Shown here one piece after another: positions 26,506-47,098 of a DNA stretch of 64,000 bases. The position numbers and the translations under genes are program-made. Location: the NCBI GenBank assembly GCA_964481895.1, contig CAYZUL010000005.1:942-64941 (forward strand), in the 5' to 3' direction. Below the pieces are notes generated by a model that did not search any database, was not told the DNA's origin, and saw nothing but the letters and a program-made list of their open reading frames with translations. Each line of letters opens with the position of its first letter. Positions within the stretch are counted from its first letter, which is position 1. Source of the DNA: an uncultured Nitrospirota bacterium. GTDB taxonomy: Bacteria > Nitrospirota > Nitrospiria > JACRHA01.

Positions 26506-26997
26506 TTACTCCTGCTTAGGTTTCACTCTCCGCTGCTCTGTCTCGATCTCAAGCTGTTGAAGCCTTAAGAGGCTCTCTTCCAATTGTTTTGTCTTGGCCT
26601 GCTCGTCGATGAGCTGCTGCTTTTGTGCAAGCAGCGACGAAAGAAGAGAGATCATGTTTTCCGACTCCCTGCGGTATGGTGACTTCGGGTATCTGGATGC
26701 TGCCTTCTGGTACTCCTTCAGTGATGCGGCATAATCCTGTTGGGGATTTTTATAATAACATAAGGTGAAGGCCAGGAGGTACTGCGCTTCTGCTGCCTCT
26801 GGTTCGGGTGGCGTCTCTTTCAGGATCTTCCTGTAAGCTTCGGCAGCCTCAGAATATTTTCCTGACTTAAAAAGTGACTCTGCCTGTTCAAGTGCAGGGC
26901 CTCGTACGTCTATGCGTATGGCAGGGAAGTTATTGCAGCCCGAGACAATAGAAAAGACAAGAAGTAAGACTGACGCACATTTAGTTGTCTTTGTCAT
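26506..26997 (-). CDS. TPR-like lipoprotein
   Basis: Lipobox FSIVSGC after the signal peptide; helical TPR-like N-terminal half and a coiled-coil C-terminus; 17-nt overlap with the upstream GGDEF gene. Confidence 0.5.
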   Translation of the reverse strand: MTKTTKCASVLLLVFSIVSGCNNFPAIRIDVRGPALEQAESLFKSGKYSEAAEAYRKILKETPPEPEAAEAQYLLAFTLCYYKNPQQDYAASLKEYQKAASRYPKSPYRRESENMISLLSSLLAQKQQLIDEQAKTKQLEESLLRLQQLEIETEQRRVKPKQE

Positions 26998-28342
26998 CTT
27001 GGGGCCCCTTATGGACTACATAGGCGCTCCGGTGAAGGCTCTTGGCATATTGCTTGAGTTGTGCAGCGATCACTGCTACTTCTGACGGTTCGCGGAGAGG
27101 GGTCTGCTCGTTGGTTATCACTGCTATTGAGATCGTCATGATAGGGAAGGAATCCACATTATCCTTCCTGTCTTTTGAGATGATGTATCCCCTTCCCCTG
27201 TCTTCTTCATCGTAATAAGAGGGGATTGCCTGATCAAACTCCTTTATCACCCTTTCGCTCAATGTCTGGATATATCGGGGCTCGGTGATCAGAACAAAGT
27301 CATCCCCGCCAATGTGACCCACGAAATCATCCGGATTGCCGAATATCTGTACAGCCTCTACCAGTATCTGCGAGACTAACATGATGACTTCGCTTCCTTT
27401 TGAAAAACCATAGCGGTCCCCAAAGGCCTTGAAGTCTTTAAGGTCTATGTAGCAAAAGGCGAAGATGTCCTGACCCCGGAGCCTTTTTATGAGCTCGCGT
27501 TCCACGGCAATGGTTCCGGGAAGCTGCGTAAGGGGATTAGCGTCAAGCTTCATCTCTCCTATTTCTTTGAGCTGTTTGGTCATCCATCGGATCGAATCGC
27601 CAAGGCTCCTTGTAACATAATCGGTCTCCAAAGGAGGAAGACGGTCAAATTCGCCTTGCCCGATTCTTCTCGTAGCCTCACTTAGCTGTTGGACAGAACG
27701 GCTGATCCTGTGGGCGGCAAAGGATGCAAAACCAAGACCAAGGGCAAGACTGGCAAGGGAGATTATGAGGGCAATCTTCCAGCTCTCTTCGCTCCTGCGG
27801 TTTGTGAGCATGAGCTTCTGTTGTTGATCATCCCTGGCCTGCTGTTCCAGTTGGCGGAGAAGCCGGAGCTGTTCATCCATATTCATCTGAAGCGGGGCAC
27901 TTAAGGATTCTGTAAATGCGAGCCCCCCTTTTTTAAGGGTGGTTAATGCCAACTCCTGTTTAAAGATATTATTGTACTCATCATGAAGCCGTGTCAGCCT
28001 TTCCCTGAGGTGAGTGTAGCCGCCTTTTATGAAGGCAGGGTTGGAGATCTGCTGTTCAAATTCTGTGCTGCGGCCCCAGAAAAGAGTCTCCGTGTAATTA
28101 TCTTTTAAGATCGCATATTTCCTTGCATATATGTCCTGGGCTGTCAGGGTCTCGATCATGGCATGTGACGCCTCTATCAGAGGGAGATCGACCTCCACTA
28201 TCCCCTTATTTATCTGTCTTAGCTCATTGAGACTGATAATGGCATATACGCCAACAAAGACAGTAAGGGCCACCATGATTAGATATCCGAGAAAAAGCCT
28301 TTGGGTAAGGGTGGGTTTATTTCTAGATTGTTTTGAACCCAT
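26981..28342 (-). CDS. Membrane sensor protein with HAMP-like linker and GGDEF domain (variant motif GGDDF)
   Basis: 453 aa; two TM helices flank a periplasmic region; the GGDEF-domain block reads PLTQLPG...DLKDFKAFGDRYGFSKGSEV...HIGGDDFVLI. Confidence 0.7.
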   Translation of the reverse strand: MGSKQSRNKPTLTQRLFLGYLIMVALTVFVGVYAIISLNELRQINKGIVEVDLPLIEASHAMIETLTAQDIYARKYAILKDNYTETLFWGRSTEFEQQISNPAFIKGGYTHLRERLTRLHDEYNNIFKQELALTTLKKGGLAFTESLSAPLQMNMDEQLRLLRQLEQQARDDQQQKLMLTNRRSEESWKIALIISLASLALGLGFASFAAHRISRSVQQLSEATRRIGQGEFDRLPPLETDYVTRSLGDSIRWMTKQLKEIGEMKLDANPLTQLPGTIAVERELIKRLRGQDIFAFCYIDLKDFKAFGDRYGFSKGSEVIMLVSQILVEAVQIFGNPDDFVGHIGGDDFVLITEPRYIQTLSERVIKEFDQAIPSYYDEEDRGRGYIISKDRKDNVDSFPIMTISIAVITNEQTPLREPSEVAVIAAQLKQYAKSLHRSAYVVHKGPQDDKDN

Positions 28343-32261: not shown

Positions 32262-32714
32262 ATGAAGGGGCAAAAGAGGAAGTTATTGAGTATCAGGAAG
32301 ATCATGGTCCCTACCGATTTTACAACATATTCAGACCATGCGATTGAATATGCAATCATGGTTGCCAGGAAATTCAAGGCAAAGATGCTGCTTGTCCATG
32401 TGATCGAACCGCTAGCTTATAGTGTAACTGATACTATGCAAGTTTTTGATCATTATACGGCATTAAAGACAGTCGCCAAACCGATCCTGGAAAACCTTCA
32501 AAAGAGGTTGTTAAAAAAAGGCCTTAAGGTAGACAGTATCCTTCTCGATGGGAATCCCTATCTTGAGATAGTCAAAAAATCCCGCGAGGCTGGGGTGGAT
32601 CTGATTATCATGGGGACCCATGGCCGTACGGGCATCGAGCATATCCTTATGGGGAGTGTGGCTGAGCGGGTCGTCCGCCTGGCATCGTGTCCTGTGGTGA
32701 CTGTGAGGGGATGA
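32262..32714 (+). CDS. uspA: Universal stress protein (UspA family), paralog A
   Basis: 150 aa; USP fold motifs (ILVPTDFT..., GTHGRTG...GSVAE); about 80% aa identity to the ORF at 56454..56906. Confidence 0.8.
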   Translation: MKGQKRKLLSIRKIMVPTDFTTYSDHAIEYAIMVARKFKAKMLLVHVIEPLAYSVTDTMQVFDHYTALKTVAKPILENLQKRLLKKGLKVDSILLDGNPYLEIVKKSREAGVDLIIMGTHGRTGIEHILMGSVAERVVRLASCPVVTVRG

Positions 32715-32814: not shown

Positions 32815-33183
32815 ATGGGGAGCAAGAAACCGTTTTTTCTTTTATTTCTAATCTTATCGTTTTCCATCTGGCTGATCTGCCCATGGAATAATCTATCCCT
32901 GGAGGCCTCATCATACGCTTCAACTCATACAGCCCATGGCCATCCTTCTGCCCACGAGGATGAGTCTCATCATGCCTCTAAAGGCATTGATCATGGCTGC
33001 ACGAACCCATTTTCCTACAGCAAGGAGGATACATCTTCTAAGATCTCATCGTCCTATATCGAAGCCCTGGAGATCGAGTCCTCCACTCATCAGGCAACAA
33101 CTGTCACAATTCAACTCTTCGATCCCCATCCCCCAAAGTTTCTTATCCATTTATACCAGATATATTCAGTCTATCTTCTTTGA
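32815..33183 (+). CDS. Hypothetical small secreted His-rich protein (uncertain)
   Basis: Signal-peptide-like N-terminus then a His/Ser-rich segment (THTAHGHPSAHEDESHHASKGIDH). RBS spacing is poor (18 nt), so this may not be a real gene. Confidence 0.25.
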   Translation: MGSKKPFFLLFLILSFSIWLICPWNNLSLEASSYASTHTAHGHPSAHEDESHHASKGIDHGCTNPFSYSKEDTSSKISSSYIEALEIESSTHQATTVTIQLFDPHPPKFLIHLYQIYSVYLL

Positions 33184-33269: not shown

Positions 33270-34364
33270 ATGAACTGCAAAAAATTATTTAAATATTCCA
33301 TAACATCCATTTGTCTGCTCATTTCCATTTTCATCACGACCAATGTAATGGCCCATGAGAAGAGGGATCGTATCTTCTATCTTCCAGGGGAATACAACTT
33401 CGCCTTCTACAATAAACACCCTAAGGTCTATGGCACGGTGGGCGCTGATCACTATATCCACGCCATAGCCTTTGAGATCCTGTTTAGGTATGGGAGTGAG
33501 AATGACCTGCTTGAAAAAGAGATTTATGATAATGCGATTAGAGTCTGGTCTCATCCGCCAAAGTTTGGACTTACCATGGAGCTTATCTCCCCTGAATTCT
33601 CAAAGCTTGTCTGGAAGGCGACTAATATCTTTGACTGGGCAGACGCGCTCCATGAGCAGCTTTACGATATCCTGGCAGATGAGAGGATCAAGGATAAAAA
33701 GAAGGCATATGAGGAGGCTATTGCCTATTACCTTTCAGTGCCTGACCTTGCGCTATCGCCGGAACCGATCCCCATGGATGTTATGGACAACCAGTACTAT
33801 TCCGGCGCCTTCCGTATCAATTACCCCAAATTCAATGCCCTCCTTTGGGCATTTCATTGGCTTGAGCCTGTCTTCTATGAGGGGCTCTTTCTATTCGACG
33901 ACCCTGCTAAAAGGGAAAAGATATTGCAGATGTGGATAGAGGAGAATAATGACTGGTTTAAGAACCCGACCCAGAGGATGCCCCTTATGCGTGATTCTGC
34001 CTTCCAGTGGTCTAAGTTTGCCCCTGCAGCGGCAAACATATTCGACAATGTCCACACCCTGCACGGGATGATAGCCGATATTATGGCCTCCCCGAAGGTA
34101 AATGATAAGCAGGCAGAGATAACCAGGGCTATCAAGCTAATGCAGACACTGCCGGGATCGGATTCTAACAACAGGATGACCAAATTCCTTCCTTTAAGAC
34201 GTGATGGTAGCTACTGGAAGGATACATCTATGATGCAAGAGATGTTGAAGATGGGTCATGACCCGGTGGCCCAGATGCGCCAGGAGATGGAGGAGGAGAT
34301 GAAGAAGATGGAAGAGAATGCAGAAAGGATAAAAAAGATACCATACATTGAAAAAGGAGAATGA
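33270..34364 (+). CDS. Secreted protein of unknown function (Met-rich C-terminal tail)
   Basis: 364 aa with a good RBS (GAGGA, 7-nt spacing) and an N-terminal signal peptide. I recognised no family. The C-terminus reads MMQEMLKMGHD...QMRQEMEEEMKKMEE. It overlaps the next gene (ATGA). Confidence 0.55.
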   Translation: MNCKKLFKYSITSICLLISIFITTNVMAHEKRDRIFYLPGEYNFAFYNKHPKVYGTVGADHYIHAIAFEILFRYGSENDLLEKEIYDNAIRVWSHPPKFGLTMELISPEFSKLVWKATNIFDWADALHEQLYDILADERIKDKKKAYEEAIAYYLSVPDLALSPEPIPMDVMDNQYYSGAFRINYPKFNALLWAFHWLEPVFYEGLFLFDDPAKREKILQMWIEENNDWFKNPTQRMPLMRDSAFQWSKFAPAAANIFDNVHTLHGMIADIMASPKVNDKQAEITRAIKLMQTLPGSDSNNRMTKFLPLRRDGSYWKDTSMMQEMLKMGHDPVAQMRQEMEEEMKKMEENAERIKKIPYIEKGE

Positions 34365-35164
34365 CGATGGGATCGAAGATCTTTACGATTTTACTGATAT
34401 TGCTTACTTGTTGGCCCTTGTCATTATCTGCACAGGTAGATTTCAGGAATTCTGACCGGGGGAGGCCTATATTAATTGAGGATGCGTACCCTATAGAGTA
34501 TTTAGCCTTTGAACTGCAAGGCGGAATTCAATATGAGAGAAGAGAGGGAGAGAATGGGTTAGGTTTTAAGCCTGAGTTCAGGTTTGGGGGCTATAAGAAT
34601 CTACAGATAGGGGTTGAGGCTGACTATAATAGCCTGTGGAATGAAAAAAGCAGATCAGGCATCTCCGATACCATTGTTCATCTCCTCTACAACTTTAATC
34701 AGGAGGGGCTTAATGTCCCCGCCCTGGCGGTCAGGCTTGATGGAGGGTTGCCAACAGGGGGACTTGGAACCGATAATTTTCATGCAAGCGGCGCCGTCCT
34801 GGCAACCAAGACATTAGGATACTTAAGGCTCCATTCAAATCTATCCTATACCCTGGGCCCAACGTCCTCAGAGGGCCAGGGATTGGATATCTCCAGATAT
34901 TTTTATGGTATAGGCTTTGACTATACCTGGCCCTTGAGATTTATCATGATAATGGGGGATGTTGTGGCAAAGAAACCTATTGATGGCGAAAAGGCTGAGG
35001 TAGCACTGGAGTTCGGGACAAGGATGCAGTTCCATCCTAAGTTCGTATTTGATGTTGGGATCGGAACAGGCGCCCTTAGGGAAGATGGAAGCAATGTCAT
35101 TGCCACAGTAGGGCTAACGTACATCTTTGGGGTCAGGAGGGTCTCATTGGGTAGCATAAAATGA
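34361..35164 (+). CDS. Predicted outer-membrane beta-barrel-like protein (family uncertain)
   Basis: 267 aa; signal peptide (LLTCWPLSLSAQ) and alternating hydrophobic beta-strand patterns; translationally coupled to the preceding secreted protein. The C-terminus does not end in an aromatic residue, so the outer-membrane-protein call is tentative. Confidence 0.45.
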   Translation: MTMGSKIFTILLILLTCWPLSLSAQVDFRNSDRGRPILIEDAYPIEYLAFELQGGIQYERREGENGLGFKPEFRFGGYKNLQIGVEADYNSLWNEKSRSGISDTIVHLLYNFNQEGLNVPALAVRLDGGLPTGGLGTDNFHASGAVLATKTLGYLRLHSNLSYTLGPTSSEGQGLDISRYFYGIGFDYTWPLRFIMIMGDVVAKKPIDGEKAEVALEFGTRMQFHPKFVFDVGIGTGALREDGSNVIATVGLTYIFGVRRVSLGSIK

Positions 35165-35262
35165 TGGGCTGTGGCCGGGTTGGATATCGGGTGGTATACT
35201 TGCTTTAGGATTTATAACTATCCTTACTAACCTAAAGATCTGCAAGCAAAAGTGGTGGCTCC

Positions 35263-36393
35263 ATGGACAAAATGGATCAACCTATAGAAATAGTAGGCGC
35301 CGGACCTTCAGGCCTGGTAGCCGCCATTACCCTGGCGCATCATGGGTACAGCGTGGTGGTGTATGAAGAGAGGTCAGATGTGGGACACCGCTTCCATGGG
35401 GATTTTCAGGGACTTGAGAACTGGAGCAGCGAAGAGGATATTACCAACCTCCTCTCCGGGATGGGGATCAAGATCAATTTCTTCTGTCAACCTTATGCGG
35501 AAGGCGATCTGTATGGACCTAATCTTCGAAGGGTTCCTGTCCGATCTCCCTTACCCCTTTTCTATCTCGTCCGCCGGGGTAGCGGGCAAGGGACATTGGA
35601 CTATGGCCTGAAGGCCCAGGCCGTTGAGGCAGGCGTGAAGTTCCTCTTTGGAAGCCGAAAGGAAAAGCTTCCTGACAGAGGGATTATCGCAATCGGCCCA
35701 AAGGTGGCAGATGCGATAGCAAAGGGGATGCTCTTTGAGACCAGACTGCCGGACATGGCAGCGGTCATCTGGGATGACAGCCTGGCACCAAAAGGATACG
35801 CCTATCTCCTGGTACATGAGGGGCACGCTACGCTGGCAACCGTACTATTCAGGTATTATAGAGATGAGCGTTATTATTTTAACCGGACATTGGAGACATT
35901 TCAAAGACTTTATCCCTTTCAGATGAAATCGCCAAGAGAATTTGGCGGTTTCGGGAACTTCTCGATCAGGTCAACAGGATATCATGGAGGAAAACTTTAT
36001 GTAGGAGAGGCAGCCGGGTTCCAGGACGACCTGTTCGGGTTCGGGATGCGCTATGCAATGACCTCCGGCTATTTTGCGGCCCGGTCAATCATCGAGGGTA
36101 TAGACTATGATAAGTTATGGAAGAGAGAACTCCTGTCGCTGCTTAGGGCTTCGACGGTGAATCGCCTTATCTTTGAGTTTATCGGGAATAGGGGCTATAA
36201 ATTTCTGGTTCGAAGGATATCGTATGCCAGAGACGTTAGGGCCTGGATGCAATGGTTTTACCGGCCATCGATCAGTAAGTCTATTTTGTACCCATTTGCA
36301 GCGCTGATGGGGCGGTACCGGTTGCATTTTAAGGATTATAGTTGCAGTCATGAGGATTGTGATTGCGTCTGGTGCCGCTGCCAACGGGAATAG
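35263..36393 (+). CDS. FAD-dependent oxidoreductase (geranylgeranyl-reductase-like) with Cys-rich C-terminus
   Basis: N-terminal dinucleotide-binding motif IVGAGPSGLVAAITLA; C-terminal tail CSHEDCDCVWCRC. Confidence 0.7.
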   Translation: MDKMDQPIEIVGAGPSGLVAAITLAHHGYSVVVYEERSDVGHRFHGDFQGLENWSSEEDITNLLSGMGIKINFFCQPYAEGDLYGPNLRRVPVRSPLPLFYLVRRGSGQGTLDYGLKAQAVEAGVKFLFGSRKEKLPDRGIIAIGPKVADAIAKGMLFETRLPDMAAVIWDDSLAPKGYAYLLVHEGHATLATVLFRYYRDERYYFNRTLETFQRLYPFQMKSPREFGGFGNFSIRSTGYHGGKLYVGEAAGFQDDLFGFGMRYAMTSGYFAARSIIEGIDYDKLWKRELLSLLRASTVNRLIFEFIGNRGYKFLVRRISYARDVRAWMQWFYRPSISKSILYPFAALMGRYRLHFKDYSCSHEDCDCVWCRCQRE

Positions 36394-36421
36394 AAATTTG
36401 AAGAAATATCTTGGGTCTTCT

Positions 36422-37216
36422 ATGGGTTTGCAGGGCAAAGAGATTTCATCAATGAAGGCCGCAGTAAAGGCGTGCCATTTGTGTGGGGCCTCTATTACCG
36501 GTCTCCCCTTTGTCCGCAAAGGGGAGGTCTGCTGTTGCGAAGGGTGCCTCCTTAAGGAAAAAGAATTCCGGGCGATCAAGGCTGAGAGGGACAACGCCTA
36601 TTTAGCCCTGGCAGAGGCCCTGGTGGCGGCCTTGGATACCAGGGAGCATGAGACAGGCCTCCATTCCAAACGTGTTGCCTGTCATACGCTGGTGCTTGCA
36701 AGACGGTTCATAAGTGAGCAAGACATCTTGCGTCAGGTTTACTGGGGCGCGCTGCTGCACGATATAGGCAAGATTGGTATCCCGGATACGATCCTCATGA
36801 AGGAGGGGTCTCTGACTGACAGTGAGTGGATAGAGATGAGGAGGCACCCTGAGATCGGCTACGATATTCTGAAGCCCGTCCCGTTCCTGACCGGGGCAGC
36901 GGAGATGGTAATAACTCATGAAGAGCGGTACGATGGCGCAGGCTATCCTCGCGGCCTTAAAGGGGAGGGCATCCCTTTTGGGGGCCGGCTCTTTGCTGTT
37001 ATTGATGCTCTGGATGCCATGACCTCAGATCGGCCTTACCGGAGGGGTTTGTCCTTTGATACGGCCAAAATGGAGATTCTCCGCATGTCCGGTACCCAGT
37101 TTGATCCAAAGGCAGTGGAAGCCTTCCTTGCGGAAGAGCCTACCCTCCGGGAAATGGTAGACTTAAAGTGCGGGGATGTGCAGCTTGATCCCGGAATATC
37201 TAAGAAGGGAGGATGA
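36422..37216 (+). CDS. HD-GYP domain c-di-GMP phosphodiesterase with N-terminal Cys-cluster (TRASH/YHS-like) domain
   Basis: HD ([12 protein letters not shown]) and GYP ([14 protein letters not shown]) motifs; the N-terminal cluster reads [25 protein letters not shown]. Start set to the internal ATG at 36422 because the track ORF start (36350) overlaps the upstream gene. The stop overlaps the copA start. Confidence 0.7.
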
Positions 37217-39546
37217 TTATGGCCATAGATCCTGTATGCGGCATGACAGTGGATGAGGAAAAGGCAGTGGGCAGGTCCATTCATGAAGGGACTACCTATT
37301 ACTTCTGTTCCACGCAATGTCTTGGCAAGTTTGAGGCCAATCCCTCCGGTTTTACCCTGTCAGCATCGCATTTGGCAAAGGCGAAGGAGGGAATCCATAC
37401 TATGCCGGTAACAGAGGCCAAATCCTCCAGGGGGATGGCCAAGGATCCCATTTGTGGCATGGTGGTCGATAAGGCGACCGCGCTCAAAACAGAGCAGGGC
37501 GGCCGTACCTATTATTTCTGCAGCGTAGGATGCCTGCACACCTTTGAATCCCCTGAGGCTGAGCTTAAGTCAATGCGGAGACGCGTAATGATTGCCCTTA
37601 CAGGGGTCCTTGCCCTGGCAATATTACGGGCCGCCGCCTTCCTGGCGCTGGCGGCCGGAGCCACAATCGTCACCTGGGCGCCCATTCCACAACTCCCCTG
37701 GTTCACATGGGGGATGTGGCTTTTTATCCTGGTAACACCAGTTCAGTTTATCGGTGGCTGGTCTTTCTACGTAGGAACATGGAATGCTATTCGCACCAGG
37801 ACAATTAATATGGACTTCCTGATCGCCCTTGGTACGACCGTTGCTTACATTTATAGCGTGGCCGTAATATTTTTTCCCTGGGTCTTGCCGATCAAGGTTG
37901 AGGAGCGTGATGTCTATTTCGAGGTCTCTGCCGTCATTATTGCTTTTGTACTCCTGGGTAAATACATGGAGGAGATAATCAAGAAACGCTCCTCTGCGGC
38001 CGTTAGAAAGCTCTTGGATTTAAAACCGGCCACGGCCCGGGTGATCCGGAATAATACTGAGATGGAGATTCCTGCGGAGACCCTGATGGTGGATGAGATC
38101 GTTGTTGTGCGCCCTGGGGAGAAGATTCCGACTGATGGGGTCGTCCAGGAAGGGTCCTCCTCAGTGGACGAATCGATGCTGACCGGCGAATCAATGCCAG
38201 TGGAAAAAAGGCCTGGGATAGAGGTAATCGGCGGCACGCTGAACAGGACGGGTATGTTCCGGTTTAGGGCTACCAGGGTGGGGGCAGATACGGCCCTGGC
38301 CCAGATCATTAAAATGGTAGAGGAGGCGCAGGCCAGCAGTGCGCCGATCCAGCGGCTTGCCGATCAGGTTACCGGCTATTTTGTTCCGGCCGTGGTAGGG
38401 GTGGCCTTCCTTTCCTTTGTCATCTGGTGGCTCCTGGGCAATTTTCCCCAAGGTCTCCTCTCCTTTATTGCGGTGCTCATCATATCATGCCCATGTGCCT
38501 TAGGCATTGCCACGCCGGCAGCGCTCATGGTTGGTGTCGGCAAGGGCGCCGAAGGGGGCATCCTAATCCGGGGCGGTGAGGTGTTGGAACGTGCCCAGAA
38601 GCTAACAGCAGTGGTCTTCGACAAGACCGGGACATTAACCCGCGGGGAACCTGATGTTACCGATATTATCCCGTTTTCTGAATTTCCTGAATCTGAAATT
38701 CTAAAGTCTGCTGCTGCCGTTGAGGCAGGCTCGGAGCATCCACTGGGTGAGGCGATTGTCCGAATGGCCAACCACAGGGGACTTGATCTTTCAAAAGTTA
38801 TTGAGTTCGAGGCCCTCCCTGGCCATGGTATCAAGGGGGTGATTGATGGTCATCGAATTCTCTTGGGCAACCGGCGACTGTTCAGAAAAGAAGGTATCGA
38901 ACTTACAAAAGCGGAAGAAATAATGACGCGCCTTGAATCGGAGGGGAAGACCGCCATGCTGGTGGGCCGAGAGGGTAAATTGATTGGCGTCATTGCAGTT
39001 GCTGATACCCTCAAGCCTGAAGCAAAGGAGGCCGTTGCTTCCCTCCGGGACGAAGGGGTAGAAGTCATTCTCCTTACCGGCGATAACCAGCGTACTGCCA
39101 ATGCCATAGCGAAGGAACTCGGGATCAAACTGGTCATTGCCGAAGTCCTGCCGGGCGACAAGGCGCAGGTTGTAAAGGATCTTCAGAGGCAGGGCAAGAT
39201 CGTAGCCATGGTAGGAGATGGCGTTAACGACGCCCCGGCGCTGGCGGCAGCCGATATTGGTATTGCCATAGGCTCCGGTTCAGATGTAGCCAAAGAGACA
39301 GGAGGGATAATTTTAATCAGGAATGATGTGCGTGATGTGGTGTCCGGCATACGCCTCTCCCGCGCCACCATGCGAAAGATCAGACAGAACCTCTTCTGGG
39401 CCTTTATTTATAATAGCGTGTCTATTCCGGTGGCGGCCCTCGGTTTTTTAAACCCGATCATAGCCGCAGCAGCGATGGCTTTAAGTTCGCTCTCCGTGAT
39501 TGTAAACTCGGCGTTATTGAAGCGGTTAAAGTTTTCTGCAATGTGA
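37213..39546 (+). CDS. copA: Copper-translocating P1B-type ATPase with two N-terminal YHS/TRASH domains
   Basis: 777 aa; two YHS motifs (DPVCGMTVD...YYFCSTQC and DPICGMVVD...YYFCSVGC), the CPC transmembrane metal site ([11 protein letters not shown]) and DKTGTLT / GDGVNDAP motifs. Confidence 0.9.
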
Positions 39547-39596: not shown

Positions 39597-41450
39597 TTGG
39601 AAATAAAAGAGCAGCAGCTCTCCCTCTGGTACTTCCTGGTTGCCTTCTTGATCCTGTTGACCATACAGAATTTTCTTTTAACGCCTCACCTTGAAAACCT
39701 CTCTTATAGTGATTTCAAGGTTCTCCTGAAGGCTGGGAAGGTGGATAATCTGACCCTTAAGCAGCGTGTTATCTCAGGTACGCTGAAAAAGGAAGGACTG
39801 GAAGATATCCTTCCTAAAGAGAAGATTGAAGAGCTTCAAAGGATTAGTAAGGGGGAGCATCGCTTTATCACGGTCAGGGTGGATGACCCATCCTTAATCC
39901 AGGAACTTGAGGCAGCTAAAGTGCGCTTTGCCGGCCAGGTGGAGAGCACCTGGTTTTCGACCATCCTCTCCTGGGTTATCCCAGCCGTTATCTTCTTTGC
40001 ATTATGGATCTTGCTAATGAAAAGGATGGGGGCAGCCAGCGGCATCATGGAGATAGGCAAAAGTAAGGCCAAGGTCTATATGGAAAAGCAGACAGGGGTG
40101 TCCTTTAATGATGTTGCTGGGGTGGATGAGGCGAGAGCTGAGTTGATGGAGGTGGTGGAATTCCTGAAGAACCCTCAGCGCTATCGACGCCTGGGCGGGA
40201 AGATCCCGAAAGGGGTCCTCCTGGTAGGTGCACCTGGGACAGGGAAGACCCTCATGGCCAAGGCAGTGGCCGGAGAAGCGGGGGTTCCCTTCTTTAGCAT
40301 AAGCGGGTCGGAATTTGTAGAGATGTTCGTAGGCGTTGGTGCGGCGCGGGTACGGGACCTTTTCGCCCAGGCCGAAGGAAAGGCCCCTTGCATCATATTT
40401 ATTGATGAGCTTGATGCCCTAGGCAAGGTGCGCGGATTTAATCCAGTTGGCGGGCATGATGAGCGGGAGCAGACATTAAACCAGCTATTGGTAGAGATGG
40501 ATGGGTTTGATACAAACAAGGGGGTCATCATAATGGCTGCAACCAACAGGCCGGAGATCCTGGACCCGGCCCTGCTCCGGCCCGGGCGATTTGACCGGCA
40601 CGTTGCCCTTGACAGGCCGGATCTAAAAGGAAGGGAAAAGATCCTCCATGTCCATAGTAAAGCCGTTAAGCTATCGCCAAAAGTCGATCTCTCTGTCATT
40701 GCCGCCAGGACCCCGGGGTTTGTAGGGGCGGATCTTGCCAACCTTGTCAATGAGGCCGCATTGTTAGCTGCCCGCAAAGGTAAGGATGCAGTAGAGATGG
40801 TTGATTTCGATGACGCGATAGACCGGATCATTGCAGGACTAGAGAAAAAGACGCGGGTGATGAATCCGAAGGAGAAGGAGACCGTTGCCTATCACGAGGC
40901 TGGTCATGCCATAATTGCCGAATCCCGTCCGCACGTAGACCGGGTTTCAAAGATCTCCATCATTCCCCGTGGTGTTGCCGCATTGGGGTATACACAGCAG
41001 CTTCCCACGGAGGACAGATATCTTCTTAAGAGGACAGAACTGCTTGATCGGCTCGATGTGCTTCTTGGAGGCAGGGTGGCCGAGGAGATTGTTTTCGGTG
41101 ATGTCTCTACCGGGGGCCAGAATGACCTCCAGCGGGCCACAGACTCGGCGCGCCATATGGTAACACAGTATGGGATGAGCGAGCGCCTTGGCTTGGCCAC
41201 ATTTGAAGAGCCGCGCACCTCTCCCTTTTTAAATATCCCTATGCCCCAGGGCCAGAGGGAATACAGTGAAAGGACAGCCCAGGCTATCGATGAAGAGATC
41301 CAAAAGCTCTTAAAGGAATCCCACGCGCGCGTCAACGAGACATTGATTTCAAAACGCTCTATGATGGATTCCCTGGCAAAACTTCTCCTTGAAAAGGAGG
41401 TGGTCGACCGGCTAACCCTGGATAAACTAATGGAAACAGATAGAGAATGA
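39597..41450 (+). CDS. ftsH: ATP-dependent zinc metalloprotease FtsH, paralog A
   Basis: 617 aa; AAA Walker [12 protein letters not shown] region, HEAGH zinc motif; TTG start with a GGGGAGGA RBS. Confidence 0.9.
40108..41326 (+). repeat. 1,219-bp block 100% identical to 55066..56284 (ftsH paralog core)
   Basis: Direct comparison of the two ftsH copies: the flanks are about 80-85% identical, the central block is perfect, and one SNP marks each boundary (40107/55065 and 41327/56285). Confidence 0.85.
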
Positions 41451-41493: not shown

Positions 41494-42309
41494 ATGCGTA
41501 ACTTAGTATGGCTTTGCATTTATTTAATGCTGGGGTTTGCAATAGCTATCCAGGCGCTATGGGGCGTTTCTGTCTGGACAGCCATTATTGTAGCCCTCCT
41601 GCTGGTCTGTCCGATAATCATGATATGGGGGGCGATAAAGGTGATGCGTCATCCTGCGGAGCTGCCATTGGAATCTGTTCCAGAGACCCGCGGTATGTCC
41701 CTGAACTGGATGGCCCCTTTTTATGATTGGCTGTGCTTGCGCTTCGGGCTAGGTACACCTTTTCGGAAGGAGACCTTACGTTTTGCGGCGTTGCAGGCCG
41801 GTGAGATGATCCTTGATGTGGGGTGTGGTACGGGCGTCCTGACGCGTATGGCGTCAGAGATAGTTGGTCCGACAGGGAAGGTGATCGGGATCGATCCTGC
41901 GCCAAGGATGATCGGCATTGCGAGAAAGCATGCCGCTCTCTCTGGTAATCAAGCAGAATTCAGGCTGGCAGTCATAGAGCACCTCCCATTTGACGATGAA
42001 ACCTTTGATGCAGTTTTATCGAGCGCCATGATCCATCACCTGCCTTCTGATTTGAAACATGCAGGTTTGCTGGAGGTAAAACGTGTGTTAAAACCAGGAG
42101 GACGTCTGGTTGTGGTGGATCTCGACCGGCCTGCCAATCTTCTATGGTGGTTTCTCGTATGGCCGCTATTGATAATGCCTTCGACCCGCGACCACCTGGC
42201 TGGTCGATTGGTCTCATATTTTATAAAGGCCGGGTTCGACCCGGCAAACAAGGTGGGAGGCTGGCGGGGACTTTTGAGCTTCTGGCTGTTATGCAAACCA
42301 AAAAAATAA
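41494..42309 (+). CDS. Class I SAM-dependent methyltransferase with N-terminal TM helices
   Basis: 271 aa; motif I VLDVGCGTGVLT and a Methyltransf_11-like core; two N-terminal hydrophobic helices. Confidence 0.7.
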   Translation: MRNLVWLCIYLMLGFAIAIQALWGVSVWTAIIVALLLVCPIIMIWGAIKVMRHPAELPLESVPETRGMSLNWMAPFYDWLCLRFGLGTPFRKETLRFAALQAGEMILDVGCGTGVLTRMASEIVGPTGKVIGIDPAPRMIGIARKHAALSGNQAEFRLAVIEHLPFDDETFDAVLSSAMIHHLPSDLKHAGLLEVKRVLKPGGRLVVVDLDRPANLLWWFLVWPLLIMPSTRDHLAGRLVSYFIKAGFDPANKVGGWRGLLSFWLLCKPKK

Positions 42310-42349
42310 ACAGGTGTACCAGGGAAACAATAAACAATAGGAGGGTCAA

Positions 42350-43078
42350 ATGAATACCAGAATGATAGGCGTTTTGTTTTTGGCATTGATGCTTTTGGTC
42401 GGTCCAGTAACCTCTGCGCAGATGATGGGTGATGGGATGATGAAGGGCGGCCAGAAGGAGATGGAGAAAAAGGAAGAGGGCCGGATGCCGATGATGCATA
42501 AAATGATGGATGAGATGATGGAGATGATGAAAGAGATGATGGAGGGAATGAAGGGCATGGCCCAGGATCAGCCGACCAAACAGAAGATGGAAGAGATGAT
42601 GAAAAAAATGGATGAGATGATGAAGCAGCATGATTCCATGATGGGAGGGATGATGGGTGGTTCCGGGATGGGATCCTCTGGGATGAAACCCTCCAAGGAG
42701 GGGGCAGCAGCTTCGTCTCTTGCCACTCAGAAAAACAGTGGTGGTGGTGTTACAGTGGAGGCGACCCTGCTAAATCCGAAAACCATCGGAGAGAAGATAT
42801 CCTTACAGATTAAGCTCGATACCCATAGCGTGAACCTCGATCAGTATGATCTGTCCGGGATTTCAAGGCTTCGGGACGACGAGGGAAAAGAATTCTCAAA
42901 ACCAACACTGGAAAAGCCTGAAGGTGAAGGCCATCACAAAGGCGGGATACTTGCATTCTCCAATAAGGATAAAGATGGTAAGCCTATAGTGACGGCAAAT
43001 ACGAAATATATTGAGCTTATCGTAAAGGATGTGGCAGGTGTGGCCGAGCGGACATTCAGGTGGGAGCTTACCAGATAG
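42350..43078 (+). CDS. Met-rich periplasmic protein, putative Cu/Ag-binding (paralog A)
   Basis: 242 aa; signal peptide then dense MxxM/MMxxMM repeats (MPMMHKMMDEMMEMMKEMMEGMKGM) and a C-terminal beta-rich domain. A paralog begins at 63368. Sits in the copper island. Confidence 0.65.
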   Translation: MNTRMIGVLFLALMLLVGPVTSAQMMGDGMMKGGQKEMEKKEEGRMPMMHKMMDEMMEMMKEMMEGMKGMAQDQPTKQKMEEMMKKMDEMMKQHDSMMGGMMGGSGMGSSGMKPSKEGAAASSLATQKNSGGGVTVEATLLNPKTIGEKISLQIKLDTHSVNLDQYDLSGISRLRDDEGKEFSKPTLEKPEGEGHHKGGILAFSNKDKDGKPIVTANTKYIELIVKDVAGVAERTFRWELTR

Positions 43079-43111
43079 AATTTTAGGTCTTCGTTAACCT
43101 GGAGGATCAGC

Positions 43112-43462
43112 ATGAAAATGATTTTGGCGATCGTACGAAGTGAATGCCTGGAAAAGCTGGAGAAAACACTCCTTAAGATTGGAGAAAAAGGTTTCTCGGT
43201 AAACAAGATCCAGGGCATGGGAGAGCTACGTGAATATGGCTACATAATATTTGACCTGGTGAGTCACATCAGGATCGAGATTATTACTTCAGAGGATCGG
43301 GTAGCTGAAATAAAGGACGCTATTGTTGAGGCCGGCTGGACAGGTTACGCTGGTGATGGGCTGATCGCAGTCCTGCCTGTAGATGAGTTTACCAAGATCC
43401 GTACTGCAAAAAGGGTTGATCCTCCGCGCAAAAAGCGGATAAGTAGGAAAAAAGGGCCGTAA
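43112..43462 (+). CDS. P-II (GlnB)-like family protein
   Basis: 116 aa; ferredoxin-like beta-alpha-beta pattern resembling P-II (ILAIVRSE...FSVNKIQGMGE...). P-II-like genes commonly accompany metal-efflux loci. Confidence 0.55.
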   Translation: MKMILAIVRSECLEKLEKTLLKIGEKGFSVNKIQGMGELREYGYIIFDLVSHIRIEIITSEDRVAEIKDAIVEAGWTGYAGDGLIAVLPVDEFTKIRTAKRVDPPRKKRISRKKGP

Positions 43463-43600
43463 TGCATAGTGAAAATATTTCTAACGCTTAGATGGCTGCT
43501 GTGATGATCATTTGACTACTTGAAGGCGACAAAGAATGCTCAAAGACACTGTCTGCGCGATGTATCTGGATGAGAAGTTGATAATTGGAGGATCGAAGAG

Positions 43601-44680
43601 ATGAAGAGATATTTAAAATTATCTATTAGTTTTATATGGGTATTGTCCTTGTTTTTATGTCTTTATCCAGAAACACTCCTCGCCCTTTCGCAGGAGGAAG
43701 AGGGCAATATCAAGGTCTATGAAGGATCGAGCCCTGGTGTGGTAAACATCATTAATACGGCTGTATCTTATGATTTCTTCTTTAACCCTGTCCCTGAAGG
43801 GGGAACTGGTTCCGGTTCTATCATCGATAAGAAAGGGAATATCCTGACAAATTACCATGTGGTTGAAGGGGCTCAGAGGCTCGATGTCACCCTCTCTGAT
43901 GGGAGCAAATGGGAGGCAAAGGTCGTTGGGGCAGATCCCAGCAATGACCTGGCTGTTATCAGGATAGATGCGCCGCAGGACAAATTAAGGATAATACCCT
44001 TCGGAGATTCAGGCGGATTAAAGGTGGGGCAAAAAGTCCTTGCCATAGGCAATCCCTTTGGACTGGAGAGGACACTCACTATCGGGATAGTGAGTTCTCT
44101 CGGTAGGACAATGAGGGCTACCAATGGCAGGCTTATGAGAGAGATTATCCAGACCGATGCAGCCATAAATCCTGGAAACTCCGGCGGCCCTCTTCTAGAT
44201 AGTAACGGAAAGATGATAGGAGTTACTTCTGCTATATTTAGTCCTGTAGGGGCCAATGTGGGTGTCGGTTTTGCAGTTTCTATAAATGTTGTAAAGAAGG
44301 TTGTCCCCCAGTTGATAGAAAAAGGCCGTGTCATAAGACCCTGGCTTGGTATTACGGGCCAGGATATAGATCCTGAGCTTGCGAAGCTATTAAAGCTACC
44401 ATCAGAAGGGATCCTAATTGCAGAGGTTGTTAATGGGAGTCCTGCTGATAAGGCAGGTATCAGGGGAGGGAAAAAAGTTATATCGATAGGCAACCTCCAG
44501 ATTGCAACAGGGGGCGATATGGTGCTGGCTATCAATGGAAAGGCTGTAAAAACTATGGATGAACTGACAGAGGACTTAGAATCGAGGGCAATAGGCCAGT
44601 CTGTTGATATTGATCTTTTAAGGGATGGTAAAAAGAAGGCAGTAAAGATATTGCTTTCAGAAATGCCGCCCGGGCAATAA
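43601..44680 (+). CDS. Periplasmic serine endoprotease DegP/HtrA family (single PDZ)
   Basis: 359 aa; catalytic-triad contexts (TNYHVV, DLAVI, GNSGGPL) and a C-terminal PDZ domain. Confidence 0.85.
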   Translation: MKRYLKLSISFIWVLSLFLCLYPETLLALSQEEEGNIKVYEGSSPGVVNIINTAVSYDFFFNPVPEGGTGSGSIIDKKGNILTNYHVVEGAQRLDVTLSDGSKWEAKVVGADPSNDLAVIRIDAPQDKLRIIPFGDSGGLKVGQKVLAIGNPFGLERTLTIGIVSSLGRTMRATNGRLMREIIQTDAAINPGNSGGPLLDSNGKMIGVTSAIFSPVGANVGVGFAVSINVVKKVVPQLIEKGRVIRPWLGITGQDIDPELAKLLKLPSEGILIAEVVNGSPADKAGIRGGKKVISIGNLQIATGGDMVLAINGKAVKTMDELTEDLESRAIGQSVDIDLLRDGKKKAVKILLSEMPPGQ

Positions 44681-44734
44681 TCTACTTTCTGCTCTTATTA
44701 CCAGGCTTATATCAGTTGAGGAGGGTACGGATCT

Positions 44735-44986
44735 ATGGATCAAAAAAAGCAGTCCCAGGAAAATGGCTTGTTTAAACAACTTAGGAGTATTGCGCTGCTA
44801 GGGCTTTTTGCTATTATTGCCTTCTTCCTCTTTACTGAGCATAGGGCGCACCTCTTTGGTGTCTTACCATACATTCTGCTTCTGCTTTGCATACTTTTTC
44901 ACCTTTTTGGTCATGGGGGAGAGGGACATACGCCTAAAAGGGATGATAAGGATATCCTATCGGGACCGGGAGGGAAACAATCATGA
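44735..44986 (+). CDS. DUF2933-like small His-rich membrane protein
   Basis: 83 aa; two TM helices; motif LLLLCILFHLFGHGGEGH resembles the DUF2933 C/H motif found in metal-resistance loci; 4-nt overlap with the next gene. Confidence 0.5.
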   Translation: MDQKKQSQENGLFKQLRSIALLGLFAIIAFFLFTEHRAHLFGVLPYILLLLCILFHLFGHGGEGHTPKRDDKDILSGPGGKQS

Positions 44987-45630
44987 ACGACGCACCGGCC
45001 TATGGTCTCTGGATGTTGGTTATCATCAACTCGCTTGTATTTATCATCTTTGCCTTCAGCTTTACGCACCCGCGTACCAGACGGGACTGGCGATCATTCG
45101 GCGCCTTTTCGGCCTTTATTGTAGCGCTATTTACCGAGATGTATGGTTTCCCACTCACCATCTACCTGATCTCGGGTTGGCTGCAAAATCGGTATCCGGG
45201 CCTGGATCCATTCTCCCACAACAGCGGCCACCTCTGGGAAACTCTTTTAGGCTGGAAGGGAGATCCCCACTTTAATCCGATGCATATACTCAGTAATATC
45301 TTCATCTTTGGGGGTTTTATCCTCCTTTCATCTGCCTGGAAGGTGCTCTATGATGCACAGCGAAAACATACGCTTGCGGTTACCGGTCCTTATGCGAGAA
45401 TACGTCATCCGCAGTATGCGGGTTTTGTGCTAATAATGTTCGGCTTCCTGCTCCAGTGGCCTACGCTTCTTACATTGATCATGTTCCCCATACTAATCAT
45501 GATGTATACCCGGCTGGCACATCGCGAAGAACGGGAGGTCCTGGCGGAATTTGGTGAAGAATACGCGCGCTATGCGGCTAATACACCCTCTTTCTTCCCG
45601 CGCTTTGGAACAAGAGAGAAGATGGACTGA
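44983..45630 (+). CDS. Isoprenylcysteine carboxyl methyltransferase (ICMT/PEMT)-family membrane methyltransferase
   Basis: 215 aa with multiple TM helices and the C-terminal motif RHPQY...EE. Confidence 0.65.
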   Translation: MNDAPAYGLWMLVIINSLVFIIFAFSFTHPRTRRDWRSFGAFSAFIVALFTEMYGFPLTIYLISGWLQNRYPGLDPFSHNSGHLWETLLGWKGDPHFNPMHILSNIFIFGGFILLSSAWKVLYDAQRKHTLAVTGPYARIRHPQYAGFVLIMFGFLLQWPTLLTLIMFPILIMMYTRLAHREEREVLAEFGEEYARYAANTPSFFPRFGTREKMD

Positions 45631-45636
45631 ATTTGC

Positions 45637-46407
45637 ATGGAACCGAATAAGAATAGAAAGGTAGTTGGCATTGCCTTTGTTCTTTGGTTTTTTGCTCTTA
45701 CCATTAGCCCGGCCCAGGAGCTTACAGGCCGTGAGATCCTGGGCCGGGTAGAGAGGCTCCTATGGGGCCGGACAAGTCAAGGTCTATCTGAGATGACTAT
45801 TATTACTCCACGCTGGCAGCGGACGCTCCTTATGCGCATCTGGATGGAGCGGCCTGATAAGACCTTCGTCCGGATACTCTCCCCCGCAAAAGAGGCAGGG
45901 ATCGGGTCGCTCAGGATCAAGTCCGAGATGTGGAACTATCTCCCAAACATAGAGCGGGTTATAAAGGTCCCTCCCTCCATGATGCTTCAGCCCTGGATGG
46001 GGTCGGACTTTACCAATGACGACCTTGTAAAGGAGAGCAGCATTGTCAATGACTATACCCATGCAATCCTTGGGATCGAGGAGATGGAAGGGGCACAGGT
46101 TTATAAGATAGAGGCGATTCCGAAACCGGATGCACCTGTGGTCTGGGGGAAACTTATCTATTGGGTCAGGAAGAAAGATCTGATCCCCCTAAAGCAGGAT
46201 TTCTACAACGAGCGTGGGGAGATTATCAAGGTTATGACCTTTACTGATATTAGGCAGATGGGGGGACGCATAATCCCCACCCGTTGGGAGATGCGTTCAA
46301 TGAAAAAAGAGGGGAATGTCACAATAGTCGTCCTAAAAGAGATGGTCTTTGACAAGCCCATCAATCAGGAGATTTTTACCTTGAGGAATCTCCAGAAGAT
46401 CGAGTGA
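45637..46407 (+). CDS. LolA-like outer-membrane lipoprotein-sorting/carrier family protein
   Basis: 256 aa; signal peptide; sequence typical of the LolA-like proteins encoded beside FtsX-type ABC exporters. Confidence 0.55.
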   Translation: MEPNKNRKVVGIAFVLWFFALTISPAQELTGREILGRVERLLWGRTSQGLSEMTIITPRWQRTLLMRIWMERPDKTFVRILSPAKEAGIGSLRIKSEMWNYLPNIERVIKVPPSMMLQPWMGSDFTNDDLVKESSIVNDYTHAILGIEEMEGAQVYKIEAIPKPDAPVVWGKLIYWVRKKDLIPLKQDFYNERGEIIKVMTFTDIRQMGGRIIPTRWEMRSMKKEGNVTIVVLKEMVFDKPINQEIFTLRNLQKIE

Positions 46408-46417
46408 GAGTTCGCCT

Positions 46418-47098
46418 ATGATCATCCTAAGGACCGAAAGGCTGACAAAGATTTATCAGCAGGATAGTGTTTCTGTCCATGCCCTTAATGAGGTTGACCT
46501 TGAGATTAAAAAGGGGGAGTTTATGTCAATTGTGGGGCCTTCCGGATCAGGAAAGACCACACTCCTCAATATGATCGGCGGGCTTGATTCCCCTACATCC
46601 GGCAATATCTGGGTAGGAGATCAGGAGATTGGGGGCCTGTCAAAGGGAAGACTTTCAGAAATACGGCTCAGAAGGATCGGTTTTGTCTTTCAGGAGTATA
46701 ACCTTATCCCTGTCTTAAGTGCGCTTGAAAACGTCGAGTATGTGATGCTCCTCCAGGGGGTGCCTGACAAAGAAAGACGTGAGCGATCCCTGGCGATCCT
46801 GAAAGAGGTCGGCCTTGAAGGGCTTGAGCACCGGAGGCCCAGGGAACTATCAGGCGGGCAGCAGCAGAGGGTCGCTGTGGCACGGGCTATTGTGTCGGAA
46901 CCGATGATCGTCCTGGCTGATGAACCTACGGCCAACCTTGATTCCAATACCGGCGCTTCTTTGCTTGATCTCATGCGCGACCTCAATGAGAAGAGAGAGA
47001 TGACATTTGTCTTTTCCACACATGATCCGAAGGTAATGGAGCGGGCAAAAAGGACTATCCTGCTAAAGGATGGAAGGATCATAGATGAAATTCCTTAA
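46418..47098 (+). CDS. ABC transporter ATP-binding protein (LolD/MacB type)
   Basis: 226 aa; Walker A GPSGSGKTT, signature LSGGQQQRVAVARA, Walker B ILADEPT. Confidence 0.85.
   Translation: MIILRTERLTKIYQQDSVSVHALNEVDLEIKKGEFMSIVGPSGSGKTTLLNMIGGLDSPTSGNIWVGDQEIGGLSKGRLSEIRLRRIGFVFQEYNLIPVLSALENVEYVMLLQGVPDKERRERSLAILKEVGLEGLEHRRPRELSGGQQQRVAVARAIVSEPMIVLADEPTANLDSNTGASLLDLMRDLNEKREMTFVFSTHDPKVMERAKRTILLKDGRIIDEIP

Follow-up and report, generated by a model that had tools for sequence, protein, structure and literature searches.

A candidate copper-sensing HD-GYP phosphodiesterase encoded beside copA in a copper-resistance island of an uncultured Nitrospirota bacterium

HD-GYP proteins are the less understood class of phosphodiesterases for cyclic di-GMP (c-di-GMP), with few input signals known, and the link from cytoplasmic copper stress to bacterial lifestyle decisions is largely unknown. 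DgcZ of Escherichia coli is a zinc-sensing CZB-GGDEF protein, CZB being a four-helix domain, and CopY, a repressor that binds DNA and has a CxCx4CxC motif, works as a Zn(II)/Cu(I) exchange switch. Copper binding has been described for the periplasmic CHASE4 domain of the GGDEF-EAL protein PA14_37690 (PMC13277305), and in an adenylyl cyclase of Mycobacterium phlei a YHS domain makes the enzyme copper-activated (Linder 2015, PMC4626032). YHS has been grouped with TRASH, FCS and L24e as one treble-clef family (PMC4999995). Described here is a gene at positions 36422–37216 of a 64,000 nt stretch of DNA from an uncultured Nitrospirota bacterium (contig CAYZUL010000005.1; ‘the window’ hereafter means this whole stretch). 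The gene encodes a putative HD-GYP phosphodiesterase with an N-terminal cysteine (Cys) module, and is followed by copA, predicted to encode a Cu(I)/Ag(I)-exporting ATPase. The combination of an established catalytic domain with a metal module of an established class is undescribed and widespread, and is found in a consistent copper context. Full-text searches for HD-GYP proteins with copA, copper-resistance islands, TRASH or YHS found no paper.

The HD-GYP enzyme is a candidate cytoplasmic copper sensor. Tentatively, it is read here as a soluble one-component signalling enzyme in which a Cu(I)-responsive Cys module may control the phosphodiesterase. The output is most probably that of a cyclic-dinucleotide phosphodiesterase, the substrate being probably c-di-GMP. 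The sole input domain is best explained as a Cys4(+1) treble-clef module of ~30 residues with TRASH/YHS ancestry, and the subfamily as a widespread, horizontally spread accessory of copper/silver-resistance islands. This account is grounded in domain architecture, conservation, remote similarity to YHS, predicted fold type, copper-gene linkage and gene fusions. The features of the two genes are as follows.

36422–37216, + strand: putative HD-GYP phosphodiesterase gene, 264 amino acids (aa) from ATG 36422 (open reading frame (ORF) and sequence, Pfam, PDB relatives, AlphaFold2)
36473–36547, + strand: N-terminal Cys module, C18-x2-C21-G-x15-C37-C38-C39-E-G-C42 (sequence, homolog alignment, hhalign, Foldseek)
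36539–36643, + strand: continuous helix, residues 40–74, running from the second Cys pair to E75/E77/H81 (DSSP on the AlphaFold2 model)
36632–37111, + strand: HD-GYP catalytic domain (Pfam, residues 71–230), with ligands E77, H81, H113-D114, H142, H166 and D195/D198
36680–36682, + strand: invariant, family-specific Cys87 in RVACH, just past the first ligand His (56/56 homologs)
37169–37171, + strand: family-specific C-terminal Cys250 in an LKCG motif (K-C-G at 37166–37174; 53/56 homologs)
37207–37212, + strand: Shine–Dalgarno sequence GGAGGA for copA, within the 3′ end of the HD-GYP gene (sequence)
37213–37216, + strand: ATGA, the HD-GYP stop (TGA 37214–37216) over the first in-frame copA ATG (37213–37215)
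37219–39546 (ORF from 37213), + strand: copA, predicted P1B-1 Cu(I)/Ag(I)-exporting P-type ATPase (TIGR01511, motifs)
37225–37344, + strand: CopA YHS domain 1 (IDPVCGM...YYFCSTQC; PF04945), with TRASH_HVO_1752_C on residues 8–42
37441–37563, + strand: CopA YHS domain 2 (KDPICGM...YYFCSVGC), the best PF04945 stretch, residues 77–117

The HD-GYP gene lies in a + strand ORF spanning 36350–37216. The gene before it extends to 36393, which leaves ATG 36422 and ATG 36452 as usable starts. The first of these was chosen in a first-pass annotation of the sequence, and residues are numbered from it here. The alternative would give a protein of 254 aa with the N-terminus MKAAVKAC..., and resembles many homologs, which begin 6–8 residues ahead of the first Cys. 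Both ATGs precede the Cys cluster. A start 3′ of it, which the first-pass annotation had named as a finding that would count against its reading, is ruled out: the stretch between cluster and catalytic domain contains no in-frame ATG, and the cluster is conserved in the inspected homologs.

The Pfam domain HD_5 (PF13487; COG2206) is matched over residues 71–230 with an E-value of 5e-33 and 114.6 bits (cut-off 27.2). Residue counts given here were taken from a full-length alignment of 56 homologs, in which the HD pair (H113-D114) and G174-Y175 are present throughout, and P176 of the GYP motif in 55/56. With HD_5 above its curated threshold and both motifs in place, the original identification of the gene as HD-GYP is borne out; the protein is annotated as ‘HD-GYP domain-containing protein’ and nothing more. 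The relatives in the PDB are V-cGAP3 of Vibrio cholerae (5z7c; 3e-36), PmGH of Persephonella marina (4mcw; 6e-35) and PA4781 of Pseudomonas aeruginosa (2e-25). Alignment to PmGH shows seven of eight metal-ligand positions to be kept. The full eight-ligand set of PmGH (E, H, HD, H, HH, D) is not present, as the canonical HHE reads HEE (T-H166-E167-E168; 36917–36925, + strand), with E167 aligned to the second His of the HH pair. Glu occupies this position in 53/56 homologs, and could still bind metal. Two family-specific thiols accompany the altered motif. The position of C87 is Leu, Val or Arg in solved HD-GYPs, and the adjacent H88 is kept in 55/56 homologs (C87-H88, 36680–36685); Cys250 is on the C-terminal side of the Pfam HD_5 domain and outside it. 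C87, H88, the K-C-G motif and HEE might together build a second metal or thiol site.

The Cys cluster itself was found exactly as first reported, i.e. CHLC-x15-CCCEGC (C18-H-L-C21, 15 residues, C37-C38-C39-E-G-C42). Among 5.8 billion protein clusters searched, 7,538 HD-GYP relatives were obtained, of which the top 120 were inspected. These are 240–330 aa long and 61–95 % identical over ~90 % of their length, and all but three carry the pattern C-x2-C-G-x-x-I-x11-12-[YF]-C-C-E-x-C-[FY]-L-K. C18, C21, C39, E40 and C42 are invariant in the 56 aligned homologs, C38 is present in 54 and G22 in 51. The position of C37, the first residue of ‘CCC’, is usually Tyr or Phe. Some variants retain C39 alone (YCEAC), and one retains C38 alone (FCGEGC); thus C38 and C39 can each pair with C42. 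Flexibility of this kind would be expected of a ligand sphere, as far as sequence variants can indicate one. The conservation of the module is beyond chance, and loss of the cluster in orthologs, the other finding that would have counted against the earlier reading, is not seen.

Remote kinship of the module to YHS is suggested by profile–profile comparison. With hhalign, the module alignment was compared with an alignment of 71 YHS domains, gathered from ATPases and small proteins encoded at related loci, and gave a probability of 83 % (P 9e-6, score 24.3). Column shuffles of the YHS alignment (n=200) gave a mean score of 8.7 (sd 2.0) and a maximum of 20.2, and the reversed alignment 7.9; the observed score is above all 200 shuffles. 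C18-x2-C21-G pairs with D-P-V-C-G of YHS, such that C18 corresponds to the YHS Asp and C21 to the YHS Cys, and G-x-x-[YF]-C38-C-E-x-C42-x-L-K pairs with G-x-x-Y-x-F-C-S-x-x-C-x-x-K, with five additional loop residues on the YHS side. Therefore, the module has a TRASH-type Cys-x2-Cys where YHS has Asp-x2-Cys, in addition to C-x3-C. AlphaFold2 models predict two short beta-hairpins followed by a helix that begins at C39-x2-C42, a treble-clef arrangement; the predicted local confidence (pLDDT) is 81.8 for the module alone, with a mean of 90.9 for the full-length protein. When 1.84 billion representative proteins were searched exhaustively with the module profile (HMMER), 60 matches were obtained at E≤1e-3. 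Nearly all of the inspected prokaryotic single-copy matches are members of this HD-GYP family or fragments of them, and the remainder consists of repeat zinc-ribbon or LIM-like proteins. The module is not covered by any Pfam or NCBIfam model. It is read here as a divergent member of the TRASH/YHS treble-clef class that is specific to this family and falls below the membership thresholds of both curated families.

The CxxCG...CCxGC arrangement also suggested a link to the N-terminal domain of CcoI/FixI ATPases (PF12156). This lead was dropped, with only 3/59 modules matching at E≥0.22 and no ATPase-length protein in the HMMER search.

CopA scores 614.5 bits (cut-off 397) against TIGR01511, the Cu-ATPase model, and also carries E1-E2_ATPase and Hydrolase domains. 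The transmembrane and catalytic signatures tested (DKTGT, CPC, YN and MxxSS) are present. At the N-terminus, PF04945 (YHS) is matched in two stretches with 87.3 bits (cut-off 30.3), and no HMA domain is matched at E≤1. The profile search suggested in the first-pass annotation therefore upholds its description of a CopA with two YHS domains in place of HMA domains. That annotation had also proposed translational coupling at 37213–37216, where the HD-GYP stop overlaps the first copA ATG. Here the tight packing of the two genes stands, whereas the precise junction probably does not. GGAGGA directly abuts ATG 37213; its distance to the second ATG, at 37219 (MAIDPVCGM), is appropriate for a Shine–Dalgarno sequence. 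In a 95 %-identical relative (locus L089) the same AGGAGGATGATTATGGCC string is present and the ATPase is called from the second ATG (MARDPVCGM); the HD-GYP gene of this relative ends 16 bp earlier, leaving a 16 bp gap to the ATPase gene. Judged from the sequence, the true copA start is likely to be ATG 37219, two bases past the HD-GYP stop. The ATGA overlap is real at the ORF level, is not conserved, and is probably not the functional junction. With the alternative starts at 37213 and 37219, the two genes thus have either a 4 nt overlap or a 2 nt gap. Stop and start overlap or lie a few bases apart, with the Shine–Dalgarno sequence inside the upstream gene, as in coupled pairs, and co-transcription of the HD-GYP gene with copA is most likely.

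The association with copper export extends well beyond this locus. A total of 185,579 species genomes were scanned for relatives, and neighbourhoods were compiled from the 80 best loci by unbiased clustering of all ORFs. Relatives are encoded in 547 species genomes. Among the named hosts are Nitrospirae, Nitrospinota and Deltaproteobacteria, as well as a large number of Beta- and Gammaproteobacteria (Nitrosomonas, Thiobacillus, Gallionellaceae, Sulfuricella, Accumulibacter, Methylophilaceae and Acidiferrobacterales). Cultured carriers include Geopsychrobacter electrodiphilus (homolog P0067) and strains of Nitrosomonas or Novimethylophilus. A P1B-1 ATPase is the commonest neighbour, at 56/80 loci. 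ICMT follows at 30/80, CusF-like proteins at 29/80, DUF2933-like proteins at 25/80 and SHOCT at 24/80. CusA and CusC are each found at 22/80 loci, CusB at 19/80, DUF5676 at 18/80, and multicopper oxidase and DUF411 at 17/80 each. Two clusters of small YHS proteins occur at 15 loci each, and a MerR-type regulator likewise at 15/80. Of 62 copies of the neighbouring ATPase gene, 59 share the strand of the HD-GYP gene, with a median downstream distance of 321 bp, and nearly all copies encode one or two YHS domains together with CPC/YN/MxxSS motifs. When copper genes were tallied with representative queries (CopA, CusCBA/F, multicopper oxidase, DUF411, small YHS proteins and MerR), at least one was found at 67/80 loci, and at 41 of the 43 loci of ≥15 kb. 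Against a background of roughly one to three copA genes per genome, which is our own estimate and not a computed value, the copper-gene linkage of the family is far beyond chance. The physical link to copper export proposed for this one gene pair is therefore broader than a single sequence could reveal. CopA of the window is 76–82 % identical to its counterparts in Nitrospirae, Thiobacillus, Sulfuricella and Novimethylophilus loci, and so horizontal spread of the island is suggested.

Two independent in-frame fusions join HD-GYP to a C-terminal YHS domain (P0072, L091 348–1313; P0117, L090 3516–4502); the second has an HMA-type CopZ/CopA pair 1.1 kb downstream. The plasmid collection contained no full-length family member. 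Its best match is a homolog on plasmid pAZKH of Azoarcus sp. KH32C (L092 7738–8570), which is 68 % identical and lacks the Cys module, while retaining the catalytic core, C87, the C-terminal Cys and HEE. As the core is kept without it, the module appears to be a separable input domain and not a folding requirement. The pAZKH homolog is located among formaldehyde/C1-metabolism genes, not copper genes. A gene for a Met-rich mini-protein of 68 aa comes immediately before it, and the stop of this gene overlaps the start of the homolog.

Several results weigh against copper sensing by this enzyme. The profile search proposed for the HD-GYP N-terminus remained below thresholds: the YHS and TRASH profiles of Pfam have no match to the whole protein at E≤1, and the isolated window module reaches only 13 bits with Arc_trans_TRASH (E 0.12; threshold 27), its best TRASH score, so that all curated metal-domain profiles are missed. 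The TRASH motif C-x2-C-x19-22-C-x3-C is not reproduced either, as the module reads C18-x2-C21-x16-C38-x3-C42 with a spacer of 16. Of the TRASH/YHS-like pattern first noted, the Cys pairs and the remote similarity to YHS thus stand, whereas membership by curated threshold and the TRASH spacing do not. Across 59 isolated modules scanned singly against Pfam, weak sub-threshold matches are distributed among numerous zinc-finger families, and include LIM, zf-FCS, prokaryotic metallothionein and ATPase-cat_bd. Profile searches of PDB sequences with the module yield only LIM and Fpg fingers, at E≥0.015. In Foldseek comparisons with the PDB, the best matches are the ClpX zinc-binding domain (TM 0.70–0.76) and LIM domains, which are protein-interaction or dimerisation modules; the query is very small, E-values are ≥0.23 and none is below 0.2. 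The module is hence as similar to generic treble-clef fingers (LIM, the ClpX zinc-binding domain) as it is to TRASH, and Cys4 treble clefs are usually structural Zn sites. At the catalytic end, the change from HHE to HEE makes activity less than certain, and the substrate may be other than c-di-GMP, since the best PDB match, V-cGAP3, is a cGAMP-specific enzyme. A scan for promoter and terminator consensus sequences at 32–46 kb gave counts not above those in shuffles, and is therefore uninformative on the operon. Finally, co-expression with copA alone would tie c-di-GMP to copper without any allosteric sensing.

These points lead to the main rival explanation, in which the module serves as a structural zinc finger that helps the long helix to fold or dimerise, and copper enters at the level of transcription only. 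A constitutively active enzyme would simply be induced together with copA by the regulator of the island, and c-di-GMP would fall as a result. The predicted Cys4 treble-clef geometry, the dimerising ClpX zinc-binding domain and LIM as best folds, the weak sequence matches to LIM and Fpg fingers and the missed TRASH and YHS thresholds would all be consistent with such a site. The transcriptional part agrees with the tight same-strand spacing to copA here and in most loci, and with a CueR-like MerR gene just upstream in 15–16 loci. However, the similarity to the YHS profile is specific and above all shuffles, and a fifth conserved Cys (54/56) is more than a Zn(Cys)4 site requires. The Azoarcus homolog does without the module, which, among 1.84 billion proteins, is almost confined to the copper-linked family; HD-GYP–YHS fusions also exist. 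On balance, a purely structural or dimerising zinc site with co-expression only is considered doubtful.

The two lesser alternatives concern docking and redox chemistry. The module could be a docking or metal-receiving partner of YHS domains, either those of CopA or those of the small YHS proteins, with local signalling at the pump or exchange of Cu(I) between ligands. A probable shared ancestry with YHS points in this direction, as do the neighbouring ATPases, which are almost always of YHS type and rarely of HMA type, the small YHS proteins among the frequent neighbours (two clusters of 15 loci each), and the in-frame fusions as a ‘Rosetta stone’ hint of interaction. Yet the pump downstream of the L090 fusion is of HMA type and 24/80 loci lack an ATPase within the fetched flank; such a docking role is considered improbable. 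A redox, sulfide or iron site (a rubredoxin-like Fe(Cys)4 centre or a thiol switch) sensing copper-induced oxidative or thiol stress is very improbable: the first knuckle shares its CxxCG with those of rubredoxin type (G22 in 51/56), the thiols C87 (56/56) and C250 (53/56) are conserved, and HD-GYP active sites are iron-dependent and redox-sensitive (PmGH, TM0186), but rubredoxin and Fe-S families are absent from the weak Pfam matches, the second Cys pair is modelled on a helix N-terminus (treble clef) instead of a second knuckle, and the neighbourhood is copper-specific, not oxidative-stress-specific.

For the one-component copper sensor that is tentatively favoured here, the following sequence of events is envisaged. 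A rise in cytoplasmic Cu(I) would lead to uptake of the metal by the thiolate site (C18, C21, C38/C39 and C42). Uptake could be direct, could displace a Zn(II) that occupies the site at rest, in the manner of CopY-type switches, or could involve hand-over from YHS proteins or from the YHS domains of CopA. Given the copper-gene neighbourhood, Cu(I) or Ag(I) is the most plausible soft metal. The second Cys pair would cap the N-terminus of a long helix, the far end of which carries the first catalytic metal ligands. In the AlphaFold2 model, the single helix 40–74 leads from the second Cys pair to the loop bearing E75, E77 and H81. It offers a plausible mechanical path from metal site to active site, and metal occupancy might be relayed along it to alter phosphodiesterase activity. 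In this way, copper stress would be coupled to c-di-GMP-controlled behaviour (motility, biofilm, dispersal) while CopA exports the copper. The identity of the metal, the direction of regulation, the substrate and co-transcription are points that we infer. A bolder version is possible, and is put forward with greater reserve: this may be the first cytoplasmic metal-sensing HD-GYP, in which a divergent TRASH-type thiolate module would read Cu(I)/Ag(I), perhaps supplied by YHS partners, and would switch c-di-GMP hydrolysis allosterically through the helix, with C87/H88/C250 and HEE as a potential second layer of copper sensitivity at the active site.

The surrounding island is of uniform orientation. 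From ~32.2 to 50.8 kb every gene is on the + strand with short gaps. The order is Usp, a His-rich small secreted protein, a 364 aa protein, an outer-membrane channel, a FAD oxidoreductase, HD-GYP and copA, followed by FtsH, a UbiE-type methyltransferase, a Met-rich protein, a P-II-like protein, a DegP-like protease and DUF2933 with ICMT, and ending with LolA-like and MacB-type ABC transporter genes. Two groups of genes flank the HD-GYP/copA pair.

33270–36393, + strand: upstream island genes, for the 364 aa protein, a Phenol_MetA_deg-like outer-membrane channel and the FAD oxidoreductase with a Cys-rich tail (Pfam, NCBIfam)
41494–45630, + strand: downstream island genes, for the UbiE-type methyltransferase, Met-rich, P-II-like, DegP-like protease, DUF2933 and ICMT proteins (Pfam)

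The genes for the 364 aa protein, the channel and the FAD oxidoreductase also flank homologs at loci L089, L007 and L001. The FAD-dependent oxidoreductase (geranylgeranyl-reductase-like; 35263–36393) is directly 5′ of the HD-GYP gene and has the Cys-rich tail CSHEDCDCVWCRC. Its homologs adjoin the HD-GYP family at 13/80 loci, and in Geopsychrobacter. Further upstream, the His-rich small protein (32815–33183) has a hydrophobic N-terminus and matches no Pfam family above threshold. The same holds for a protein of 242 aa with a long Met-rich stretch of MMxxMM repeats (42350–43078) downstream of copA. The two proteins resemble soft-metal binders of the periplasm. Sixteen related loci also encode Met-rich proteins.

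Homologs elsewhere also have genes for ICMT, DUF2933 and the methyltransferase beside them. In the window, the genes for DUF2933 and the ICMT/PEMT-family methyltransferase form a pair with overlapping stop and start (44735–45630), ICMT being second only to the P1B-1 ATPase among the neighbours of the family. The P-II-like protein (43112–43462) matches PF00543 at 3e-14 and, weakly and sub-threshold, PF06153, a cyclic-di-AMP receptor family, at 1.5e-4. It is possibly a nucleotide-binding effector near the phosphodiesterase, and a similar gene is present at L089 and at 4/80 loci. The end of the island (45637–50772) encodes a LolA-like protein, an ABC ATPase, a MacB-type FtsX permease of 836 aa and a protein of 394 aa. 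This set also follows the HD-GYP gene at L078, and partly at L021 and L089.

Two FtsH paralogs in the window are 93 % identical (39597–41450 and 54555–56435), as are two Usp paralogs at 84 % (32262–32714 and 56454–56906). One FtsH gene separates copA from the methyltransferase gene, an insertion absent from the L089 island, and the other is directly upstream of a Usp gene. Outside the island, a HAMP-GGDEF diguanylate-cyclase-like protein is encoded on the − strand 8 kb upstream (26981–28342), and thus the host has c-di-GMP synthesis capacity close to the island. An Rfam scan of the whole window for structured RNAs, including c-di-GMP riboswitches, returned only a tRNA.

The subfamily comprises small, soluble, two-module proteins of ~250 aa, and is common in environmentally important bacteria such as nitrifiers, iron and sulfur oxidisers, Accumulibacter and methylotrophs. 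It would offer an experimental handle on TRASH/YHS-class domains, whose metal-sensing role has very little biochemistry behind it. If the proposed function is correct, mobile copper-resistance islands would be shown to carry signalling cargo, and those of Nitrospirota and Beta-, Gamma- and Deltaproteobacteria would supply a behavioural response of their own (dispersal or biofilm) in addition to detoxification.

In comparison with described systems, the closest in catalytic domain are HD-GYPs with N-terminal sensors (RpfG, as REC-HD-GYP; PmGH, 4MCW; PA4781, 4R8Z; V-cGAP3, 5Z7C). These share the catalytic domain (1e-25 to 3e-36) and the logic of an N-terminal input joined by a helix to the catalytic domain. 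The family described here differs in an input that is a 30-residue Cys4(+1) module, a predicted treble clef, outside any Pfam model, in H-E(E) at the active site (53/56), in C87/H88 and the C-terminal KCG, and in its copper-island home. TRASH (Ettema et al. 2003; PF08394 and relatives) and YHS (PF04945) share with the module the Cys-x2-Cys...Cys-x3-Cys pattern and an association with heavy-metal trafficking genes, and the treble-clef fold predicted for the module is that of their class; unlike TRASH, the module has an additional adjacent Cys (CC-x2-C) and a spacer of 16 in place of 19–22. CopY may serve as a working analogy, in that a Cys-rich site with resting Zn could be remodelled by Cu(I), with no sequence relationship between the two. 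DgcZ (CZB-GGDEF) and PA14_37690 (CHASE4) likewise have a metal ion as input to an enzyme of c-di-GMP turnover, as is proposed here, yet they have other sensor folds and other catalytic domains, and neither lies inside a copper-export operon. The nearest functional analogue is the YHS adenylyl cyclase of M. phlei, in which a domain of the TRASH/YHS class is fused to a cyclic-nucleotide enzyme. In that cyclase the YHS domain is C-terminal, matches PF04945, has D+3C ligands and is part of an enzyme that makes cAMP, whereas the module described here is N-terminal, has C for D and a shorter loop, falls below the PF04945 threshold and is joined to an enzyme predicted to degrade a cyclic dinucleotide.

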